Positions 1 to 7,301 of a DNA stretch of 7,301 nt are shown in pieces. The DNA lies in IMG/VR virus record IMGVR_UViG_2703718791_000006, positions 1-7,301 of that record. One strand, written 5' to 3'. Position numbers and translations under genes: made by a program. Numbering within the stretch: the first letter of the stretch is position 1; each line of letters opens with the position of its first letter. Source of the DNA: a virus. Taxonomy: Duplodnaviria > Heunggongvirae > Uroviricota > Caudoviricetes. Under the pieces are notes generated by a model that was given only the letters and a program-made list of their open reading frames with translations, searched no databases and was not told where the DNA came from.

Positions 1-1
1 A

Positions 2-187
2 CACCCGCAAGGGCGGGACTCGCACAACCTGAATAAATACATCTGGCGCTTTATTGCCTTTGGCGCGTCAGAACGTCAAATCATCCACGTAACCGCCTGG
101 ACGGAACGCGAAGCGCGTAACCGTTGCCCGTCCGGTTGTGTTGCTGTATTCGCCGCCCGTATTCGTCAGGAGGTGCACCATGATTAA
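2..187 (+). CDS. 3' end of an upstream gene entering from the left edge (5'-partial); product unknown
   Basis: Frame 2 is the only frame open from the window edge to TAA at 185-187. Its stop overlaps the ATG at 180 of the next ORF (ATGATTAA), the arrangement expected for translational coupling. No start codon in window, no recognisable motif. Confidence 0.35.
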   Translation, partial: HPQGRDSHNLNKYIWRFIAFGASERQIIHVTAWTEREARNRCPSGCVAVFAARIRQEVHHD

Positions 188-392
188 TCTGTCACTTACT
201 GACCTTAACCGCATTCAGTTTCGTGAGAAATTCACAGGGCAGCTACTGGTCAATGTGGATAAAGGTCGCGTGGTGTGTAATTACCACTTACCAGATGAAG
301 CAATTGTCGCCACAAGGGAATCATTACAGGAAATCACAAAACGTGCCGGAATGATTAACACGAATATTCAGGGGATGCTTTATGCACAATAA
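180..392 (+). CDS. hypothetical small protein (70 aa from ATG 180)
   Basis: ATG at 180 lies 6 nt downstream of a perfect AGGAGG Shine-Dalgarno (168-173). The ORF track begins at GTG 138, but the SD favours ATG 180. Stop TAA 390-392 overlaps the next ORF start at 382. No recognisable family. Confidence 0.55.
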   Translation: MINLSLTDLNRIQFREKFTGQLLVNVDKGRVVCNYHLPDEAIVATRESLQEITKRAGMINTNIQGMLYAQ

Positions 393-612
393 AACCACAC
401 CGGACGCAGCAGAAGAAGCAATGCAAATACTGATACGTGCGCTCGTTGATGTTACCCACATGGTGGAGATTATGGAGAGAAAATCACAGTCGGAGCACGA
501 CAAAAGAAAACTTAAAACAATAAAAATAATTGCCAAAAACTCGCTGATAAAAGTTACAGACATCCTTAATGAGGACATTAAAAGAATAAGGGAGAAAATT
601 TGTGATGCATAA
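382..612 (+). CDS. hypothetical small protein, 76 aa, lysine-rich and predicted helical
   Basis: ATG 382 preceded by AGGGGA (369-374). Overlaps the upstream stop and the downstream start. The stretch is visibly AT-rich compared with neighbouring genes. No family recognised. Confidence 0.5.
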   Translation: MHNKTTPDAAEEAMQILIRALVDVTHMVEIMERKSQSEHDKRKLKTIKIIAKNSLIKVTDILNEDIKRIREKICDA

Positions 613-832
613 AATCCCTTTTGAAGTATTAATCCACTCTGAAAACGCATTAATTAAAGCGCGTGAAATGAATGCGTTGTTAATTAAATTAATTGAAGCA
701 ACGGAAGCTGGAGAAGAATCTTCGTCATTAATGCTTGCCGCCGTTCAGACATTACTATCGCCTGTAATTGATGAACTGGATAAGGCGATGGCAATTCACG
801 AAAATAATAACGCGCCCCACACCGGAGAATAA
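605..832 (+). CDS. hypothetical small protein, 75 aa, predicted helical
   Basis: ATG 605 preceded by GGGAGA (590-595); the track's start at 602 is a GTG. Overlaps the upstream stop at 610-612. Same size and helical character as the preceding ORF, so a tandem paralog is possible. Confidence 0.5.
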   Translation: MHKIPFEVLIHSENALIKAREMNALLIKLIEATEAGEESSSLMLAAVQTLLSPVIDELDKAMAIHENNNAPHTGE

Positions 833-837
833 AAATA

Positions 838-1137
838 ATGAAACTTAAATATTCTGGCTTAACTGCCAGTGGCAACACTCACCCTAAATTTACGCGCGGT
901 GATATTTACCGCGACCAGTACGGCGGCACGGTAATGATTAAGGGCGTGGCGGGACGGTGCGTAACTTACCGCCGTGAAGGTTACGAATATGATTGCGTGA
1001 TGCCTGTTTATCAGTTCCGGCGTGATTTTTCTCTGGTACAGACCGCGCCGCATAACGTGCCCACCAGCAACGCCAGGGCACGGGCAAACATCCAGAAGCT
1101 GAAAACCATGATTAACGTATTCAGGGGTAAAAAATGA
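838..1137 (+). CDS. hypothetical protein, 99 aa
   Basis: ATG 838 preceded by GGAG (824-827). Stop TGA 1135-1137 overlaps the helicase ATG at 1134 (ATGA coupling). No family recognised. Confidence 0.55.
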   Translation: MKLKYSGLTASGNTHPKFTRGDIYRDQYGGTVMIKGVAGRCVTYRREGYEYDCVMPVYQFRRDFSLVQTAPHNVPTSNARARANIQKLKTMINVFRGKK

Positions 1138-2882
1138 AACTGGCACCGAACGTAAAAAAACAGCCACGCGGAATAAAACACAAAGACACAGAGGTAATTA
1201 TCTTTGCGGGTAGTGATGCCTGGTCGCACGCGAAACAATGGCAGGAGCAGGATGGCCCCGCATCCGGCGATAATGTGCCGCCTGTGTGGCTTGGGCCAAA
1301 GCAGCTTGCCGAACTTGATGCGCTGAAAATTGTTCCGGATGGGAAAAAGCGCGTAAGGCTGTACCAGGCCGGAGAACTAGATTTAGTGGAGACCAAAAAG
1401 ATTGGTCAGAAGCTGGCGGCGGCAGATATTCAGGACGCAAATTTTTACCACGAAGGAATGCACGTCCAGAAGTGTGAAAACTGGCGGCGCTATCTGAATG
1501 CTGAGCGTGAAAATATTGCCGCAGGGCTTACCATGCCGGAGCAGAAAAATACGCAACTGGCACAAATGGCAGACAGTGAGCGCGCACAGATGCTTGCTGG
1601 TCGATTTGATGGCGTTTGTGTGCATCCGGAAAGTGAAATCGTTCACGTATGGCGCGGCGGGGTATGGTGTCCGGTCAGCACAATGGAACTTAGCCGCGAA
1701 ATGGTGGCGATCTATTCAGAGCACAGGGCCACTTTCAGCAAGCGCGTAATCAATAACGCCGTGGAAGCGTTAAAAGTTATTGCCGAACCAATGGGCGAGC
1801 CGTCCGGCGATTTGCTGCCGTTCGCCAATGGTGCGCTTGACCTGAAAACGGGGGAATTTTCCCCGCACACGCCGGAGAACTGGATCACCACGCACAACGG
1901 CATTGAGTACACGCCACCAGCACCAGGGGAGAATATCCGCGACAACGCGCCAAACTTTCATAAATGGCTTGAGCACGCAGCCGGAAAAGACCCGCGCAAG
2001 ATGATGCGTATATGTGCCGCGCTGTACATGATTATGGCGAACCGGTACGACTGGCAGATGTTTATTGAGGCCACCGGAGACGGCGGGAGCGGTAAAAGTA
2101 CATTCACACACATAGCCAGCCTTCTGGCAGGGAAACAGAACACGGTAAGCGCTGAAATGACATCGCTTGATGATGCTGGTGGACGTGCGCAGGTTGTCGG
2201 GAGTCGTCTTATCGTCCTGGCTGACCAGCCGAAATATACAGGCGAAGGAACGGGCATCAAGAAAATCACGGGCGGCGACCCCGTGGAAATTAACCCGAAA
2301 TATGAGAAGCGTTTTACGGCGGTAATCAGGGCGGTGGTGCTGGCTACCAACAATAACCCGATGATATTCACCGAACGGGCCGGAGGTGTGTCACGTCGTC
2401 GCGTAATTTTCCGTTTCGACAATATCGTCAGTGAGGCCGAAAAAGACAGGGAGCTACCGGAAAAGATTGCGGCTGAAATCCCTGTCATTATCCGCCGATT
2501 GCTGGCGAACTTTACCGACCCTGAGAAGGCACGGGCTTTACTACTGGAACAGCGTGACGGTGATGAAGCTCTGGCAATAAAGCAACAGACGGATCCGGTT
2601 ATTGAGTTTTGCCAGTTCCTGAATTTTCTGGAGGAAGCACGCGGCCTGATGATGGGCGGCGGTGGCGATTCAGTGAAGTACACGACCAGGAACAGCCTTT
2701 ACCGCGTCTATCTGGCGTTTATGGCATACGCAGGCAGGAGCAAACCGCTAAACGTGGCTGAGTTCAGCAAGGCCATGAAGCCAGCGGCGAAAGTTTACGG
2801 GCATGAATATATTACGCGAAAAGTTAAGGGAGTAACGCAGACCAACGCAATTACAACAGACGATTGCGACGCGTTTTTATAA
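1134..2882 (+). CDS. replication protein: P4-alpha / D5-type superfamily-3 helicase (phage/plasmid primase C-terminal-domain family)
   Basis: 582-aa ORF with Walker A GDGGSGKST (about nt 2079-2105) and a Walker B-like hydrophobic run ending in Asp (RLIVLADQ) in a central NTPase region, flanked by N- and C-terminal extensions as in P4-alpha/D5-family proteins. Last gene of a coupled operon and immediately followed by an iteron array. Whether a primase domain is present cannot be settled by eye. Confidence 0.7.
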   Translation: MKLAPNVKKQPRGIKHKDTEVIIFAGSDAWSHAKQWQEQDGPASGDNVPPVWLGPKQLAELDALKIVPDGKKRVRLYQAGELDLVETKKIGQKLAAADIQDANFYHEGMHVQKCENWRRYLNAERENIAAGLTMPEQKNTQLAQMADSERAQMLAGRFDGVCVHPESEIVHVWRGGVWCPVSTMELSREMVAIYSEHRATFSKRVINNAVEALKVIAEPMGEPSGDLLPFANGALDLKTGEFSPHTPENWITTHNGIEYTPPAPGENIRDNAPNFHKWLEHAAGKDPRKMMRICAALYMIMANRYDWQMFIEATGDGGSGKSTFTHIASLLAGKQNTVSAEMTSLDDAGGRAQVVGSRLIVLADQPKYTGEGTGIKKITGGDPVEINPKYEKRFTAVIRAVVLATNNNPMIFTERAGGVSRRRVIFRFDNIVSEAEKDRELPEKIAAEIPVIIRRLLANFTDPEKARALLLEQRDGDEALAIKQQTDPVIEFCQFLNFLEEARGLMMGGGGDSVKYTTRNSLYRVYLAFMAYAGRSKPLNVAEFSKAMKPAAKVYGHEYITRKVKGVTQTNAITTDDCDAFL

Positions 2883-2895
2883 TTTTTTGTAAAAG

Positions 2896-3124
2896 CCCTC
2901 TACCCCATCTACCTGAATGAAATAAACGCATATTATTCAACATGATAAGTGGGTAGAGGGCTAGGTAGAAGGCTAATAAAAGCTCTCTACCTCTTCTACC
3001 TGATTTTATCAGTTTCAGGTAGCAGGGTAGACGGCAGGTAGAGGAGCCCAAAAAGCTATCTACCCGCTGAAAGCCGCGCCATTACTGACATGATGAGCAT
3101 TCGGGTAGATGGGTAGAGGGGGGG
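2896..3124. repeat. iteron array, candidate satellite replication origin
   Basis: Twelve copies of GGTAGA or its complement TCTACC, often inside a longer GGGTAGAGG core. Top strand GGTAGA at 2952, 2964, 3026, 3037, 3104, 3112 and GGTAGC at 3018; TCTACC at 2899, 2908, 2986, 2995, 3059. Copies occur in pairs or triplets 9-12 bp apart, in alternating orientation blocks, with AT-rich stretches at 2915-2950 and 3125-3160. Sits between the helicase and the ssb operon. Confidence 0.6.
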
Positions 3125-3165
3125 AGGCACAACTAAAAACTTTTTAAACGAGGGGGTGAAAATAA

Positions 3166-3480
3166 ATGCGCATACATCAAAATCACTTAACAAACATGCC
3201 AGCCGAAAACATGAATCAGGGGCGACAAATGACCAAAATTCGCAGAGACAGAACAGAGCCAAAATATAAAGCGTTAGACATGACTGAGCATACCTTAAAG
3301 GTGGCAATCAGAACGATAGACCGCCACACGCGGGAAGGATACGCGAAGGAACATCCCGACCTGATAAGCGCATTCATGACCACAGCGGCGGCAAACTTTG
3401 CCACGCTGACAGAACGGGAGATTGCCGAAGCGGAACAGGTAACAACCATCAACGTTAAAACCGGAGAGGTGGAATCATGA
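3166..3480 (+). CDS. hypothetical protein, 104 aa, coupled to ssb
   Basis: ATG 3166 about 8 nt downstream of AGGGGGTG. Stop TGA 3478-3480 overlaps the ssb ATG at 3477. Alternative internal starts exist. No family recognised. Confidence 0.5.
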   Translation: MRIHQNHLTNMPAENMNQGRQMTKIRRDRTEPKYKALDMTEHTLKVAIRTIDRHTREGYAKEHPDLISAFMTTAAANFATLTEREIAEAEQVTTINVKTGEVES

Positions 3481-3887
3481 CAGCACAGATAGCCGCTTAC
3501 GGGCGGCTGGTGGACGACCCGCAGGTAAAACAGACCAGCAAGGGCACACCGATGACGCTGGCGCGTATGGCGGTCCCCCTTCCGTGCAGCCAGGCAGATG
3601 ACGGAACGGCTACGTTATGGCTATCGGTGATGGCATTTGGTAAGCAGGCCGACTTCCTGGCTAAACATCAAAAAGGCGACGTTGCCAGCATATCTGGCGT
3701 GATGCAGATAAGCCAGTGGACCGGACAGAACGGGGAAACGCGGCAGGGTTATCAGGTTATTGCAGACAGCGTAATCAGTGCCCGTGCGGCACGTCCTGGC
3801 GGGAACAGACGCAAAACCACAGGCGCACAGGGTAATCAGCCACCAGCGGGAGACGATGACCCCTACGGTGATGATATTCCGTTCTGA
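3477..3887 (+). CDS. ssb: single-stranded DNA-binding protein (short OB-fold SSB with acidic C-terminal tail)
   Basis: 136 aa. N-terminus GRLVDDPQV resembles E. coli SSB GNLGQDPEV, and an aromatic/Gly-Lys OB-fold block (WLSVMAFGKQA versus WHRVVLFGKLA) follows. A Gly/Pro/Gln-rich linker ends in DDDPYGDDIPF, the canonical SSB tail. Good SD (GGAGAGGTGG) upstream. Confidence 0.85.
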   Translation: MTAQIAAYGRLVDDPQVKQTSKGTPMTLARMAVPLPCSQADDGTATLWLSVMAFGKQADFLAKHQKGDVASISGVMQISQWTGQNGETRQGYQVIADSVISARAARPGGNRRKTTGAQGNQPPAGDDDPYGDDIPF

Positions 3888-3895
3888 ACGCACAG

Positions 3896-3919
3896 GCCGG
3901 AGAAAATCCGGCTTTTTGT
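3896..3919 (+). terminator. rho-independent terminator after ssb
   Basis: GCCGGA-gaaaa-TCCGGC hairpin (6-bp GC-rich stem) followed by TTTTT, 9 nt after the ssb stop. Confidence 0.6.
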
Positions 3920-3923
3920 ACCC

Positions 3924-3970
3924 AAAAAAAGCCCGATAAGTACAGGAGGAAGCTTATCGGGCTTTTGCTT
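3924..3970. terminator. second, possibly bidirectional, terminator hairpin
   Basis: 10-bp stem GCCCGATAAG/CTTATCGGGC with a 12-nt loop, A-run upstream (3924-3930) and TTTTG downstream. Confidence 0.45.
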
Positions 3971-4040
3971 ACGAGGTTAACAGCATGGTGACTACTGTTG
4001 CTGTAAATCATTTCATAATTTGCAACACAACTCAATTTTA

Positions 4041-4091
4041 TTGCGCAAAATGCAATCATGATTATAATCATAACTGGATGAACATCCAGTT
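4041..4091 (+). promoter_or_regulatory. candidate sigma70 promoter with two palindromic operators ahead of the capsid operon
   Basis: -35 TTGCGC (4041-4046), 16-bp spacer, -10 TATAAT (4063-4068). Perfect 14-bp palindrome ATGATTATAATCAT (4058-4071) overlaps the -10. Perfect 9-2-9 inverted repeat AACTGGATG-AA-CATCCAGTT (4072-4091) lies just downstream. Confidence 0.45.
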
Positions 4092-4124
4092 GTGATTTTT
4101 TAAGTCAAAGAGGAATTTCTGACT

Positions 4125-4331
4125 ATGGCAGAAGAGAAAAAAGGCGGTGTTTCGGTGTACATAAGCCCCGAAATCGTGGAGGTGCTCAAGCAGCGCCACA
4201 AAAAAAACTATGAGGCTGGCGTAGCGGCTGGACTGGATCCGCTGATGACGCCGGAGCCGTCGATAGGTTCACTTGTGCGCTCTTATTTACTTGCGGCGCT
4301 TGGGATGCATAAAAATTATGGGGGTGAATAA
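4125..4331 (+). CDS. hypothetical small protein, 68 aa; possible ribbon-helix-helix DNA-binding protein
   Basis: N-terminal GGVSVYISPEIVEVLKQ fits a beta-strand plus helix pattern as in Arc/CopG-type RHH proteins, and a second helix SIGSLVRSYLLAALG follows. Stop TAA 4329-4331 overlaps the capsid ATG (TAATG). The fold assignment is a guess from sequence pattern only. Confidence 0.5.
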   Translation: MAEEKKGGVSVYISPEIVEVLKQRHKKNYEAGVAAGLDPLMTPEPSIGSLVRSYLLAALGMHKNYGGE

Positions 4332-5386
4332 TGGCAGGCAAAGCAACGGCACTTAACACTAACCAGCTTTTTGCGTACCTGAATCGCGGGGATATTGCGG
4401 AATTTAAATTTAGTCCGCTGTTTACCACGCTGTTTTTCCCGAAAGTAGCGACATTCAACACCCAAAACATCATGCTGGATAACCTGGACACCGAAGAAGT
4501 CACTATGTCAGCGTTTTGCTCGCCTATGGTTGGTAGCCAGGTACAGCGCGATAAAGGGTACGAAACCAGCACGATTAAACCTGGCTACATGAAGCCAAAG
4601 CACGAAATCGATCCAACAAAAACCATCATGCGCATGGCTGGAGAAGATCCGGCACAGCTTAACGACCCAACCTATCGCCGTATGCGCCTGATTACTGGCA
4701 ACATGCGCCGCCAGGTAAACGCTATTAAAGCGCGTGTTGAATGGCTGGCGGTAAATGCGGTAACGACCGGAAAAAACATCATTGAGGGCGAAGGCATAGA
4801 GCGCTATGAAATCGACTGGAAGATACCGGAAAAAAACATCATAGAGCAGGCCGACGGGAAAAAATGGTCAGAGCAGGACAAAGAAACCCACGATCCAATC
4901 TATGATATCGAACTATACGCCGATCAGGCTGGTTGCCCCGCAAACGTCATGATTATGGGCGCTGAGGTATGGCGAACGTTACGCAGCTTTAAAAAATTCC
5001 GTGAGCTGTACGATCTTTCCCGTGGTTCAGAGTCCGCCGCAGAGCTGGCCTGTAAAAACCTGGGCGAAGTGGTGAGCTTTAAAGGCTATCTGGGCGATAT
5101 TGCCCTTATCGTCTATTCCGGCAAATACGCCGACAGCGACGGCACCGAAAAACATTTCCTTGAGCCTGATTTGCTGGTCTTGGGCAACACCAACAATAAA
5201 GGGCTGGTTGCTTATGGTGCGATTATGGATCAGGAAGCGGTAAGAACGGGCGCAACGCAAAACATGTACTACCCGAAAAACTGGATTGAGGACGGCGATC
5301 CGGCGATTGAGTACGTGCAGACGCACAGCGCACCGCAGCCGGTGCCGGCAGACATTCGCAAATTTGTTACCGTCAAAATTGGTTAA
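4331..5386 (+). CDS. major capsid protein, lambda gpE family (HK97 fold)
   Basis: 351 aa, colinear over its full length with lambda gpE (341 aa) as recalled. Conserved blocks: FKFSPLF versus FKFDPLF; PGYMKPKHEIDP versus PGYVKPKHEVNP; DPTYRRMRLITGNMR versus DPAYRRRRIIMQNMR; RGSESAAELACKNLGEVVSFKGYLGDIALIVYSGKY versus RGSNSELETAVKDLGKAVSYKGMYGDVAIVVYSGQY; YPKNWIEDGDPAIEY versus YPKNWVTTGDPAREF. SD GGGGTGA upstream. Confidence 0.9.
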   Translation: MAGKATALNTNQLFAYLNRGDIAEFKFSPLFTTLFFPKVATFNTQNIMLDNLDTEEVTMSAFCSPMVGSQVQRDKGYETSTIKPGYMKPKHEIDPTKTIMRMAGEDPAQLNDPTYRRMRLITGNMRRQVNAIKARVEWLAVNAVTTGKNIIEGEGIERYEIDWKIPEKNIIEQADGKKWSEQDKETHDPIYDIELYADQAGCPANVMIMGAEVWRTLRSFKKFRELYDLSRGSESAAELACKNLGEVVSFKGYLGDIALIVYSGKYADSDGTEKHFLEPDLLVLGNTNNKGLVAYGAIMDQEAVRTGATQNMYYPKNWIEDGDPAIEYVQTHSAPQPVPADIRKFVTVKIG

Positions 5387-5397
5387 CGGGGGATTCT

Positions 5398-5733
5398 ATG
5401 AACACTCCATACATTGAGTTATTTGCAGGCAGTCAGCAGGTATCCACGACGCTGGTACATTTTGCCGCTGATGCTGGCGTCATTCAGGAATTTACCCCGC
5501 TGATGCTGGCGGACAATGGCGAGTTTAAGCCGTGGGATGGTCAGGCGTCCGGAAAGGCTGTTTATCTGACTTCGTACCCCGTGGACACGTCAAAGCAGAA
5601 ATCAGCACAGTGCTACAAGACGGGGATCTTTAATATCGCCGCCGTGAACTGGCCCGAGAGCGTCGACACCGATGCGAAAAAATGCGCCGCCTTTGCGGGT
5701 TCTGGCGTATCCGTTCAGCCGCTGGCCCGATAA
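5398..5733 (+). CDS. head decoration protein, lambda gpD family
   Basis: 111 aa versus gpD 110 aa. Shared blocks: TPLMLAD / TPLMLD, WDG, YKTGIFN..WPE / YKSGTF..WPE, KKCAAFAGSG / KKRTAFAGT. SD GGGGGAT upstream. Gene order is capsid then decoration, the reverse of lambda's D then E. Confidence 0.8.
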   Translation: MNTPYIELFAGSQQVSTTLVHFAADAGVIQEFTPLMLADNGEFKPWDGQASGKAVYLTSYPVDTSKQKSAQCYKTGIFNIAAVNWPESVDTDAKKCAAFAGSGVSVQPLAR

Positions 5734-5745
5734 GCAGGGGGAACG

Positions 5746-6159
5746 ATGGCAACGAATGAAAGCATCATGACGCTACCGCTGGCGAGTAAATTTAAAGCCG
5801 AAGCGCGAGCAATGGCTGACAGAGGTTTATCAACCTACGAGGCCGTATATCAACTCAACAAACTGGAAGAGCAGGACAAGCCGCGCGCTGATGCGATTAT
5901 GGCGCTTCATGAGCATAACGACTATCAGCCGCTGTTACGTGCAATGGCAAACGTGCCTTGTATCGATGTTGGTACGGCTAAAAGCATCCTTAGCATGACC
6001 ATAGAGCAGGAACGCCAGAAGGTTGCGCCGGAGCTTACCGCAGCCTTTGAAAACTTTATGGACATGCACAGCCCGCAAGCCGTTTCAGCTGGCATGGCAT
6101 ACGACGGCAGAAACCCGGGCGATGATGGCGACATCGAGCGCATACTGAAAACCATCTGA
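5746..6159 (+). CDS. hypothetical protein, 137 aa, last gene of the capsid operon
   Basis: Strong SD AGGGGGA before ATG 5746 and a terminator directly after the stop. No convincing similarity to lambda FI, FII or Nu3 as recalled. Confidence 0.6.
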   Translation: MATNESIMTLPLASKFKAEARAMADRGLSTYEAVYQLNKLEEQDKPRADAIMALHEHNDYQPLLRAMANVPCIDVGTAKSILSMTIEQERQKVAPELTAAFENFMDMHSPQAVSAGMAYDGRNPGDDGDIERILKTI

Positions 6160-6165
6160 GACAAG

Positions 6166-6188
6166 GCCGGAGAAATCCGGCTTTTTTT
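6166..6188 (+). terminator. rho-independent terminator after the capsid operon, abutting cosQ
   Basis: GCCGGA-gaaa-TCCGGC hairpin followed by TTTTTTT. Near-identical to the terminator at 3896-3919. Confidence 0.6.
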
Positions 6189-6265
6189 ACGGGTCCTTTC
6201 CGGCATATGGACCCGTTACGGGGCGGCGACCTCGCGGTTTTTCGCTATTTATGACGTTTTTCCGT
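6187..6265 (+). other. lambda-type cos site, copy 1 (cosQ, cosN, I2-like proximal cosB)
   Basis: TTTACGGGTCCTTTCCGG (6187-6204) matches the lambda right-end cosQ region. GGGCGGCGACCT (6221-6232) is identical to the lambda 12-nt cohesive end, and the 17-bp spacing between them is kept. The following CGCGGTTTTTCGCTATTTATGA closely matches the lambda left end CGCGGGTTTTCGCTATTTATGA. No ATGTCCGGTT-type repeats before the terS start. Confidence 0.75.
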
Positions 6266-6269
6266 GAAG

Positions 6270-6296
6270 GTGACACCACCACCACTTGATTAATAT
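6270..6296 (+). promoter_or_regulatory. weak candidate promoter for the small terminase gene
   Basis: GTGACA (6270-6275), about 15-bp spacer, TAATAT (6291-6296). The alternative TTGATT (6286-6291) has a poor -10. Low confidence. Confidence 0.25.
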
Positions 6297-6321
6297 TTAA
6301 CCATGTAGTTAAGGTAACATT

Positions 6322-6756
6322 ATGATTGATAAAGCTTGTTTTGTAAGTCAGCAGGAAATAGCTGAACATTTCAAGGTTAACAGAACCACTATTCGCGCAT
6401 GGACCAAACAGGGGATGCCGTATCTTAATGCGGATCGCGGAAAGTCCGGCGGTTATCACATCGGGCATACATTGCTTTGGTCTTCAGGTAAAAGCCATCT
6501 TGAGGCCATTGGATATCACGTAGAAACCAGTGCGCTGGAAAAAATTATGTTTGCCAGGCTGCTTTCATCTGAGCGTGACGAGTACTCCAGTGAAGAAACA
6601 GAACATCGATTTGATGAAGGTTTGCAGATTTACGGATATTCACCGGAAGATGTGAGCAAGGCACGAAATAAAATGGCTGGCTTTCTGGCTGGGTGGCGTC
6701 ATGCCGTAAGCGTTCGCCGTGCCAGCATGGAGCAATCAGCCGATACAGAACAGTAA
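6322..6756 (+). CDS. small terminase-like protein, phage Nu1 family (N-terminal winged-HTH DNA-binding domain)
   Basis: 144 aa. N-terminus SQQEIAEHFKVNRTTIRAWTKQGMPYL parallels lambda Nu1 KKQLADIFGASIRTIQNWQEQGMPVL. It is shorter than Nu1 (181 aa) and diverges after the HTH. It sits about 90 bp downstream of the cos copy 1 cohesive end, where lambda has Nu1. Confidence 0.75.
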   Translation: MIDKACFVSQQEIAEHFKVNRTTIRAWTKQGMPYLNADRGKSGGYHIGHTLLWSSGKSHLEAIGYHVETSALEKIMFARLLSSERDEYSSEETEHRFDEGLQIYGYSPEDVSKARNKMAGFLAGWRHAVSVRRASMEQSADTEQ

Positions 6757-6824
6757 AGCCGATAACTTGTTAATCACTCGCAGCAATGCATGTGATTTGT
6801 GCACACTTTCGGTTAACTGGTTCG

Positions 6825-6921
6825 ATGTCCGGTTTTAGTGTCTGTTTTTTGCGCATGTCCGGTTCATGGAAAGCATGTTTTTATATTTTTCATATGGTTA
6901 ACTTGCAGAGAAACCGGACAT
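6825..6921. repeat. three 10-bp ATGTCCGGTT repeats in a cosB-like R-I-R-R layout (candidate small-terminase binding sites)
   Basis: ATGTCCGGTT at 6825-6834 and 6855-6864 on the top strand and inverted (AACCGGACAT) at 6912-6921, with an AT-rich stretch (about 6876-6896) between the direct pair and the inverted copy. GGTTAACT also recurs at 6810 and 6895. Lies between the terS stop and the inverted cohesive-end sequence. Confidence 0.5.
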
Positions 6922-6924
6922 GGA

Positions 6925-7003
6925 TCCCGAAAAATTTTCATAAATAGTGAAAACGCGCGAGGTCGCCGCCCCGTAACGGGCCATAATTCCAGGAAGGACC
7001 CGA
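6925..7003 (-). other. second lambda-type cos site, inverted (cosQ-like, cosN, I2-like)
   Basis: Bottom strand reads CGGGTCCTTCCTGG..CGTTACG-GGGCGGCGACCT-CGCGCGTTTTCACTATTTATGAAAATTTTT. The cohesive-end 12-mer occupies 6960-6971 on the minus strand. 6956-6980 is a perfect 25-bp inverted repeat of 6212-6236, with imperfect similarity continuing on both sides. The cosQ-like element differs from lambda at a few positions. Confidence 0.65.
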
Positions 7004-7035
7004 CGACACCAGGCTATCAGAACGATGGGGGCACA

Positions 7036-7301
7036 ATGACAGAAGCCGAACTACTGCGATTAATCCGCCGCGTTACCGGAATCAGCCAGCAGCATGACGA
7101 ACAGGGCACGCAACCGGACAGCGTGACCGCTGAAAATTATGCGCGTGTTGTTGCTGAGGTGATGCGCCGTGATGGTATTGAGCTTAACGGCGTGGATATG
7201 CGCAACATACGAACCAGAGTCCTTGAGTTGCTGGCATACCGTCGCCGCGTGGAGATGTATCGGGAGAAGGAGAAAATCACGTACCACTGGAAGAAGCCGG
7301 A
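7036..7301 (+). CDS. 5' part of an ORF running off the right edge; product unknown
   Basis: ATG 7036 preceded by GATGGGGG, open in frame 1 to the window end (MTEAELLRLIRRVTGISQQHDEQ...). Not in the ORF track because it has no stop in window. No match to the lambda gpA N-terminus; resemblance to the lambda FI N-terminus is too weak to call. Confidence 0.45.
   Translation, partial: MTEAELLRLIRRVTGISQQHDEQGTQPDSVTAENYARVVAEVMRRDGIELNGVDMRNIRTRVLELLAYRRRVEMYREKEKITYHWKKP

Follow-up and report, generated by a model that had tools for sequence, protein, structure and literature searches.

Two convergent cos sites around rppA in an Escherichia coli phage-inducible chromosomal island, the second resembling the cos of PhiR12-type phages

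The window treated here, a stretch of 7,301 nucleotides from a Caudoviricetes record (IMG/VR record IMGVR_UViG_2703718791_000006, positions 1 to 7,301), belongs to a cos-type phage-inducible chromosomal island (PICI) of the EcCICFT073 family and includes its packaging module. It matches Escherichia coli CFT073 (1380869-1388638) with 92% identity over 88% of the window length and strain STEC434 with 97% identity. In both strains, the matching segment is a small island with chromosomal genes on both sides, and the island genes present in this context are those for an integrase, a small AlpA-like helix-turn-helix (HTH) regulator, primase, SSB, capsid, and decoration protein, followed by proteins of 137, 144, and 93 aa. 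The PICI backbone is represented in the window by the primase; the window stops short of the integrase, which is known, as are the HTH regulator and the chromosomal flanks, from the STEC434 and CFT073 loci. EcCICFT073 is the prototype of Gram-negative cos-type PICIs, and its helper-dependent induction, packaging, and transfer have been shown (PMC6092414, PMC6739421). The window belongs to the same family and has the same gene order (cos1 / rppA c1503 / cos2) and both cos sequences, with RppA differing in 2/144 residues; it stems from another strain and represents another island allele. Judged by this relatedness, the functional data published for EcCICFT073 should carry over to the window.

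Toward the right end of the window, two cos sites converge on the gene rppA. The features of this interval are as follows (positions in bp are counted from the respective cosN).

6190-6267, plus strand: left arm of a 78-nt imperfect inverted repeat, the cosQ-cosN-I2-like part of cos1
6190-6198, plus strand: cosQ core of cos1, CGGGTCCTT, the same as the cosQ/R4 box of lambda and phage 21
6212-6236, plus strand: left copy of a 25-bp perfect inverted repeat
6221-6232, plus strand: cosN 12-mer of cos1, GGGCGGCGACCT, the lambda cohesive-end 12-mer, as in EcCICFT073 cos1 (Fig. S1A of PMC6739421)
6262-6402, plus strand: cosB of cos1, with limits set by mapping the primers of the published phi80 chimera (PMC6739421 supplement) onto the window; extends into the 5' end of rppA
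6268-6285, plus strand: proposed Rpp-binding box 'R3-PICI', AGGTGACACCACCACCAC, bp 48-65 (position according to PMC9026076)
6322-6756, plus strand: rppA, encoding a redirecting-phage-packaging protein of 144 aa, not TerS
6825-7003, minus strand: cos2, a complete phage-type cos (cosQ, cosN, I2-like region, three R boxes), corresponding to EcCICFT073 cos2
6825-6834, plus strand: third R box of cos2, bp 138-147; its palindromic partner, present in the phage, is missing from cos2
6855-6864, plus strand: second R box of cos2, bp 108-117, opposite in orientation to the R3-equivalent box
6911-6922, minus strand: R3-equivalent box of cos2, CATGTCCGGTTT, bp 50-61, the position of R3 in lambda and phage 21
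6925-7002: right arm of the imperfect inverted repeat
6956-6980, minus strand: right copy of the 25-bp perfect inverted repeat
6960-6971, minus strand: cosN 12-mer of cos2, GGGCGGCGACCT
6994-7002, minus strand: cosQ core of cos2, CGGGTCCTT

The two 25-nt copies are exact reverse complements of each other (25/25) and constitute the longest inverted repeat in the window; in 200 shuffled controls, the longest inverted repeat was mostly 12-14 nt and in none longer than 20 nt. An earlier interpretation of this DNA from its letters alone, referred to here as the sequence-only reading, had pointed out this repeat with a cohesive-end 12-mer in each copy, an imperfect similarity extending into the cosQ-like and I2-like flanks, and two cosN sites facing each other at a distance of about 740 bp. 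These observations hold: the imperfect repeat runs over 78 nt with 81% complementarity, and the cosN starts of the convergent sites lie 739 bp apart. The cosQ core is located ~30 bp outside cosN in each arm, which is the lambda spacing. Through bp 45 from the cut, the two sites are identical to lambda at 40/45 and 42/45 positions; beyond bp 45, only 19-20/75 positions (~25%) agree. Both sites are lambda-like to bp 45 and unrelated to lambda further on. The cos of the lambda family (lambda, phi80, and phage 21), composed of cosQ, cosN, I2, and a cosB with R3, I1, R2, and R1, thus has cosQ/cosN and their spacing in common with both window sites, whereas the cosB parts differ: that of cos1 lacks repeated R boxes and is read by Rpp-TerS, and that of cos2 contains the R3-equivalent box and two further boxes. 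It had also been noticed that an R-box array is present in copy 2 only, and indeed no repeated R box was found in copy 1. From the 'R-I-R-R' order read in copy 2, the three R boxes stand, while the 'I' proved to be merely an A/T-rich spacer.

The pair represents the cos1 and cos2 sites published for EcCICFT073, a correspondence that the sequence-only reading missed. Placed on the window, the sequences of Fig. S1A (PMC6739421) assign cos1 to copy 1 (plus strand) and cos2 to copy 2 as its reverse complement. Two cosN sequences in EcCICFT073 were reported by Fillol-Salom (2018, ISME J; PMC6092414); plasmids with either cloned cos site could be transferred by lambda and phi80, and island transfer was lower upon deletion of cos1, higher upon deletion of cos2, and abolished upon deletion of both. 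RppA was subsequently shown to bind the helper TerS and to block phage packaging, the terminase being redirected to cosB of cos1 only, as demonstrated by cosB swaps and a phi80 chimera (Fillol-Salom 2019, Mol Cell; PMC6739421). A single N15-like 'R3-PICI' at bp 48-65 was then proposed (Murialdo and Feiss 2022; PMC9026076). cos1 fits this N15-type cosB with a single R3, since it has one conserved box at that position and neither R2 nor R1; the model, in contrast to the layout described here, provides for one cos per island and leaves cos2 unmentioned. Deletions, cloning, and exchanges of cosB have all been applied to this pair; cos1, cos2, and RppA were functionally characterized in this earlier work, and the core finding adds nothing new. 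A text search of the three papers revealed no mention of orientation, inversion, or origin of cos2, the words 'orientation', 'opposite', and 'inverted' being absent from the main texts of PMC6092414 and PMC6739421, and nothing relevant was found in the literature searched for a later explanation of cos2 or a source paper of the PhiR12/ECOR phages. The phage identity of cos2, the conserved layout with a modular second cosB, and the natural inversion of the cassette were not encountered in the literature searched.

No phage counterpart of the cos1 cosB was detected in the phage-record search; the match of cos1 to lambda-like phages is confined to the ~80-nt cosQ-cosN-I2 part. This site hence joins a helper-like cosQ/cosN to a non-phage cosB immediately upstream of rpp. 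The ACACCACCACCAC box at bp 48-65 is kept in the left arms of RppA, RppB-like, and RppC-like loci, and two promoter-like matches (6270-6297 and 6297-6326) lie within the cos1 cosB.

The gene between the sites had been taken for terS, an assignment that has to be corrected. Its 144-aa product matches RppC (PDB 6hlk; E=4e-32), differs in two residues from the CFT073 RppA (c1503), and has an N-terminus identical to that of RppA in Fig. S1 (PMC6739421), with residues R21, T22, R25, W27, and K29 conserved. A Pfam search with RppA yielded no Phage_Nu1 match and merely sub-threshold HTH matches, the similarity to PHROG terS covers residues 7-46 only, and BLASTP against lambda Nu1 aligned only residues 8-56 (E=4e-6). 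The protein displays the features of an Rpp, i.e. an N-terminal winged HTH, a size of ~140-155 aa, and no TerL-binding C-terminus; the full Phage_Nu1 domain including the C-terminal TerL-binding region, by which Nu1-type small terminases are recognized, was not found in it. Judged by these matches, RppA is a TerS-mimicking specificity factor that comprises the N-terminal winged HTH alone, without the TerL-binding C-terminal part of Nu1.

A full-length Nu1-type TerS occupies the rppA position in two sister islands, those of IHE3034 (L005, 2718-3260) and O157:H7 TX 265-1 (L006, 2716-3258). It consists of 180 aa, matches Pfam Phage_Nu1 (E=2e-23), and shares 35% identity with lambda Nu1. Upstream of the gene lies a cosB of its own, whose boxes are of the GGTTGGTGTATT type; in many RppA islands, the second cos has a GGTTGTTGT-type cosB similar to this word, a likeness that might possibly permit cross-packaging between co-resident islands.

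cos2 has a close relative among sequenced phages. A BLAST search against 50,697 phage records returned a match of 93% identity over 179 nt to the Escherichia phages PhiR12_1, _2, _2_star, _4, and _5, which spans cosQ, cosN, and all three R boxes. Ungapped comparison with the PhiR12_1 cos gave 167/179 identical positions, with ~1 mismatch in the 105-nt cosB part. In PhiR12_1, the cos2-like sequence resides between Rz and the nu1/terS-terL genes, the usual place of a lambdoid cos. The 10-mer ATGTCCGGTT occurs three times (6825-6834 +, 6855-6864 +, and 6912-6921 -; 0.03 copies expected), each time on the cosB side of copy 2. As in a lambda-type cos, the cosN 12-mer is accompanied by a cosQ ~30 bp upstream and by repeated R boxes, the first of them at bp 50-61. 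The IHF site I1 between R3 and R2 was not recovered: no match to the IHF consensus WATCAANNNNTTR (<=1 mismatch) was found in the A/T-rich cos2 spacer 6835-6911, a consensus scan that does not prove absence. The R word of cos2 is CATGTCCGGTT, compared with CGTTTCC in lambda and CATGTCGG in phage 21, and its boxes are oriented -> <- <-, compared with -> <- -> in the lambda family. The cos/terminase module of the PhiR12-type lambdoid prophages (PV340549-PV340554) shows the same R boxes and the same spacing as cos2. Two differences remain: in the phages, the cognate terS and terL come after cos, whereas the neighbor of cos2 is the 3' end of rppA in antisense; and the island site is without the last half-palindrome. 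By all these correspondences in sequence, cos2 reproduces the entire PhiR12-type lambdoid cos almost exactly. Other cosB types of the island family gave no phage match (IHE3034 left and the GGTTGTTGT type), a partial phage 21-like match (IHE3034 right), or a weak SerU-LTIIb match (O157 right). As they are without a good phage counterpart, descent from the cos of a living phage is solid for the PhiR12-type cos2 only.

Of 5426 complete E. coli genomes, 1149 (21%) contain the PhiR12 module of cosB and terS (coverage >=80%). PhiR12 TerS shows 46% identity to lambda Nu1 over residues 73-164 only, its N-terminal ~70 residues being unrelated, and RppA aligns to it with E=0.048 (versus E=4e-6 for Nu1). 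Because the DNA-binding half of PhiR12 TerS is unrelated to the lambda-type domain that Rpp mimics, Rpp is predicted to be incapable of redirecting a PhiR12-type terminase.

A natural recombinant of island and phage is found in strain GB089 (L007, NZ_CP013663.1, 2500-3200, corresponding to window 6190-7002). Here, the cos on the capsid side continues into the full PhiR12 cosB and the nine initial codons of PhiR12 terS, which are fused in frame to the 3' half of rppA. The fusion point lies at a 9-nt microhomology (TTGCCAGGC), and the product is a truncated Rpp without DNA-binding domain; the other cos of this island has a GGTTGTTGT-type cosB. Such a fusion implies physical exchange between island and phage. 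GB089 had initially been a candidate for an inverted cassette, which was rejected when base-level analysis identified a phage-derived replacement.

The two-cos layout is widespread. Two convergent cos sites occur in every E. coli island examined, namely those of CFT073, STEC434, IHE3034, O157 TX265-1, GB089, WP4, HM670, CU568-3, S1-CAM-02-A, LH50-c, and STEC2018-607. Among 25 distinct IMG/VR Rpp loci, 23 show the layout; of the other two, one contains only a single cos and one is truncated at a contig end. The comparison with related islands suggested in the sequence-only reading came out in favor of conservation. Beyond this group, an Rpp alignment searched against one genome per species gave a single distant and uninformative match, in a Dokdonella metagenome-assembled genome, and a scan of viral contigs with the same alignment added one RppC-class locus only. 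The layout is also kept in loci with a different cohesive-end type (L028-L030), and an IMG/VR locus of the RppC class (L065, 1869-2632) has convergent cos sites with two different cohesive ends (GGGGCGGCAGACGCGC... and GGGGTAGCCATACGCGC...). By their ends, these two sites would be cut by different TerL specificities, and it is difficult to account for such an arrangement if both were used by one and the same terminase. The cosN variant GGGCGTCGACCT is found in both arms of L027 and of L035, which indicates a concerted change. The capsid-distal cosB differs among lineages, each with its own R word:

Window: PhiR12-type cosB, R word CATGTCCGGTT, orientation -> <- <-
IHE3034: 21-like cosB, R word CATGTCG(G/T)T, orientation -> <- ->
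O157 TX265-1: R word CAGATCC, orientation -> <- ->
GB089 and others: R word GGTTGTTGTATTG, orientation -> <- ->

This exchange of the second cosB among lineages would suggest a modular tuning of the helper range. Among satellites of Gram-positive hosts, the cos-type Staphylococcus aureus pathogenicity islands SaPIbov4 and SaPIbov5 likewise carry a helper-type cos, and two putative cos sites were reported for SaPIbov4; their sequences, in contrast, are unrelated, and they are without Rpp.

Natural inversion of the segment between the sites was followed by building the predicted inversion junction between the two cosN cores and searching it in the 5426 complete genomes. The inverted junction was found as one contiguous piece with 100% coverage in 15 genomes, all with the same 97.1% match, and the normal junction in 64; all RppA-type IMG/VR loci (24/24) are in normal orientation. 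In WP4-S17-ESBL-08, the island is integrated at the CFT073 site (phoQ side) and encodes RppA and ORF93 proteins identical to those of CFT073, with rppA on the opposite strand. The un-inverted version of this phoQ-site allele is present in 10 genomes (100% identity over 660 nt). Compared with HM670 or CU568-3, WP4 shows 0 mismatches over 1850 nt of left flank, 1-2 mismatches over 1000 nt of right flank, and, after reverse complementing, 0 mismatches over the 751 nt of the interior. Each arm has retained its outer flank, and its cosB side has been swapped for that of the other arm. Since the three inverted phoQ-site genomes checked (from Japan, Thailand, and China) are identical and all 15 share the same match, they may represent one event with subsequent spread. 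A further case is an rpp-less cassette at the yejO site (an R-box cosB and a GGTTGTTGT cosB), which lies in opposite orientations in S1-CAM-02-A (L034) and STEC2018-607 (L066), with 2 mismatches over 536 nt of interior after reverse complementing and collinear flanks; here, the exchange is limited to the 25-bp perfect core. Inversion was thus observed in two independent cases, each with the crossover inside the shared cosN core. In L034, L066, and also L035 (LH50-c), PhiR12-type and GGTTGTTGT-type cosB arrays face each other and are joined at opposed remnants of rpp 3' ends. The cosQ-cosN spacer typical of the right arm (TTCCTGGAATTATGGCC) is found in the left arms of STEC434 (L001, 14122-14164), O157 TX265-1 (L006), and HM670/WP4 (L039/L033), where the perfect repeat is consequently extended from 25 to 47 bp, as in the phoQ-site allele (HM670/WP4); this speaks for gene conversion between the arms or for their repeated exchange of sequence.

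Two routes of inversion are conceivable. One is an exchange mediated by RecA within the 25-47-bp repeat; for recombination dependent on RecA, 25 bp is close to the minimum length. Alternatively, in a terminase 'cut-and-flip', both cosN sites would be cut, releasing an interior fragment with identical 5'-GGGCGGCGACCT overhangs that could be re-ligated either way, as suggested by analogy to the chemistry of lambda cosN. Inversion is probably an occasional, neutral by-product of the repeat, as the layout is symmetric and the likely rppA promoter is inside the cassette; each flipped cosB still adjoins a cosQ-cosN, and a terminator separates rppA from the upstream operon.

In the proposed mechanism, which builds on the arrangement cos1 -> rppA <- cos2, the sites would be assigned to different helpers. 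cos1 (6190-6402, plus strand), with its lambda-type cosQ/cosN and island-specific cosB, would be read by a heterodimer of RppA and the TerS of a lambda-, phi80-, or 21-type helper, by which the helper TerL would be brought to cos1, cut cosN, and package rightward through rppA. For the CFT073 orthologue, it was shown that the RppA-TerS heterocomplex recognises the cosB of cos1, that TerL cuts cosN, and that transfer by lambda and phi80 requires cos1 (PMC6092414, PMC6739421). cos2 (7003-6825, minus strand), pirated from a PhiR12-type phage, would be used directly by a PhiR12-type terminase, which would package the island leftward and without Rpp. Lambda packages from cosN toward cosB, and owing to this polarity cos1 is expected to run rightward and cos2 leftward. 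Each packaging run would end at the next copy of the same site, reached from its cosQ side. Cleavage of both sites in the same concatemer would confront each run with a broken end 739 bp further on, which would explain why deletion of cos2 helps transfer by lambda and phi80. The 739-bp interior would occasionally invert, as the two sites are inverted repeats with a common cosN core. Taken as a whole, with cos1 serving Rpp-redirected lambda-type helpers, cos2 serving PhiR12-type helpers directly, and inversion being occasional and neutral, this is regarded as the best explanation, with a probability of roughly 0.6. The interpretation of the convergent pair as a dual-specificity cassette, by which a second, very common helper class packages directly and in the opposite direction, combined with a recurrent and possibly cut-and-flip inversion, is put at somewhat below even odds.

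Several points weigh against assigning cos2 to PhiR12-type helpers. The literature searched contains no experiment with such a helper; when lambda or phi80 is the helper, cos2 is disadvantageous, as transfer rises upon its deletion (PMC6092414). The site is without the distal half of the last palindromic R pair of the phage and shows no IHF consensus in its spacer, and the predicted failure of RppA to bind PhiR12 TerS follows from sequence dissimilarity alone. Island and PhiR12-type prophage module coexist in at least three strains (S1-CAM-02-A, NCTC9112, and SCU-172), all with islands of the rpp-less L034 type, an anecdotal number. Two IMG/VR islands (L012 and L014) have the cosN variant GGGCGACGACCT, a point change, in cos2 only; it fits decay of the site and may reflect either decay or altered specificity. 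Of the dual-helper packaging raised as a possibility in the sequence-only reading, whose interpretation is partly supported, the homology stands, cos2 being a copy of a PhiR12-type phage cos; its direct use by the PhiR12-type terminase is what we infer.

Some of these points would also suit a non-adaptive relic, i.e. a piece of PhiR12-like cos captured via recombination in the shared cosQ-cosN and nearly neutral since. The gain in lambda and phi80 transfer without cos2, the missing R half-site, the mutated cos2 cosN in L012 and L014, and the frequent illegitimate rearrangements in this interval (GB089, L034-type islands) would be expected of such a piece. However, a second convergent cos is kept in all E. 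coli islands examined and in 23/25 IMG/VR loci, including those with other cosN types and cosB words, the cos2 cosB is almost identical to that of a living phage, and cloned cos2 is packaging-competent (PMC6092414, PMC6739421); moreover, a site that lowers transfer and confers no benefit should be lost. A relic is therefore considered unlikely. Still less probable is that cos2 acts as an interference decoy, which would capture the terminase of phages that Rpp cannot hijack and lower the phage yield by unproductive cuts, besides or instead of spreading the island. PICIs are known to interfere with helper packaging (PMC6739421), cos2 has the same sequence as the phage's own cos, and cuts at both convergent sites of one concatemer would leave 739-bp dead ends; but one copy per island would be a weak competitor unless the island over-replicates, and initiation at cos2 would package the island as well, so that the decoy overlaps with the best explanation given above.

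The inversions could also be read as a programmed switch, i.e. phase variation that would alter helper specificity, the direction of packaging, or the expression of rppA. Otherwise identical islands occur in either orientation for two independent cassette types (15 versus 10 genomes at the phoQ site; L034 versus L066 at the yejO site), as with invertons (Hin/Gin/Cin, the fim switch, and shufflons), in which a short segment between inverted repeats likewise occurs in both orientations among isolates. In contrast to these, the repeats are terminase cleavage sites and no orientation-dependent output is evident; no dedicated invertase or recombinase gene was found in or beside the cassette, the only ORFs there (rppA, g137, and ORF93) being without a recombinase domain. 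The architecture is symmetric, so that each cosB has a cosQ-cosN partner whichever way the cassette lies, the putative rppA promoter turns with the cassette, the RppA-type IMG/VR loci are uniformly normal, and the 15 inverted genomes may stem from a single fixed event. A switch is accordingly thought quite improbable, and from the recombination-invertible cassette proposed earlier, the variants in both orientations are real, while nothing points to programming. Finally, an assembly artefact (a collapsed or chimeric repeat) is practically refuted: 53 complete genomes contain the full cassette (coverage >=80%), 64 contain the normal junction, and the double cos recurs in independent IMG/VR contigs and also in CFT073, whose two sites have each been cloned and deleted in experiments (PMC6092414, PMC6739421). 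With the layout kept in dozens of independent assemblies and across island lineages, the earlier suggestion of a rearrangement scar or artefact is not borne out.

The remaining features of the window are the following.

1134-2882: primase
4331-5386: lambda E-like major capsid protein (Pfam E=2e-52)
5398-5733: D-like decoration protein (E=6e-18)
5746-6159: 137-aa protein (g137), weakly similar to the C-terminal part of head-maturation protease/scaffold families (phrog_53, E=5.5e-8)
6164-6189, plus strand: intrinsic-terminator-like hairpin with T-run, AGGCCGGAGAAATCCGGCTTTTTTTA, directly upstream of cos1, ending the capsid/decoration/g137 operon (folding energy -19.1 kcal/mol, z -3.65)
7036-7301, plus strand: ORF93, a conserved open reading frame of 93 aa with unknown function (phrog_1561), truncated where the window stops; it serves as marker of the right flank and stays un-inverted

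The hairpin was recovered by folding; a terminator scan gave only weak matches, located within cosN and the R3-equivalent box. EcCICFT073 was stated in 2018 to be without capsid morphogenesis genes (PMC6092414); the island in the window, in contrast to that statement, does encode an E-like capsid and a D-like decoration protein. Inside the primase gene, at 2270-2281, the cosN 12-mer is matched with one mismatch and without cosQ or cosB context. The match is found at the same position in related islands and is most likely coincidental coding sequence.

What remains of interest beyond the published work is the phage identity of cos2 with its dual-helper explanation, the modular second cosB, and the recurrent natural inversion. 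A candidate second helper class can be named, as the PhiR12-type phages have been isolated and sequenced and their packaging module is found in about one fifth of E. coli genomes. The natural inversions reveal that functional cos sites can serve as recombination substrates, which is relevant to annotation and to how stable engineered PICIs are, and which could represent a new route of terminase-mediated rearrangement. If true, the dual-specificity explanation would answer why these islands keep two cos sites, and virulence-associated islands would have a wider helper range, and thereby a wider transfer potential, than Rpp alone predicts.

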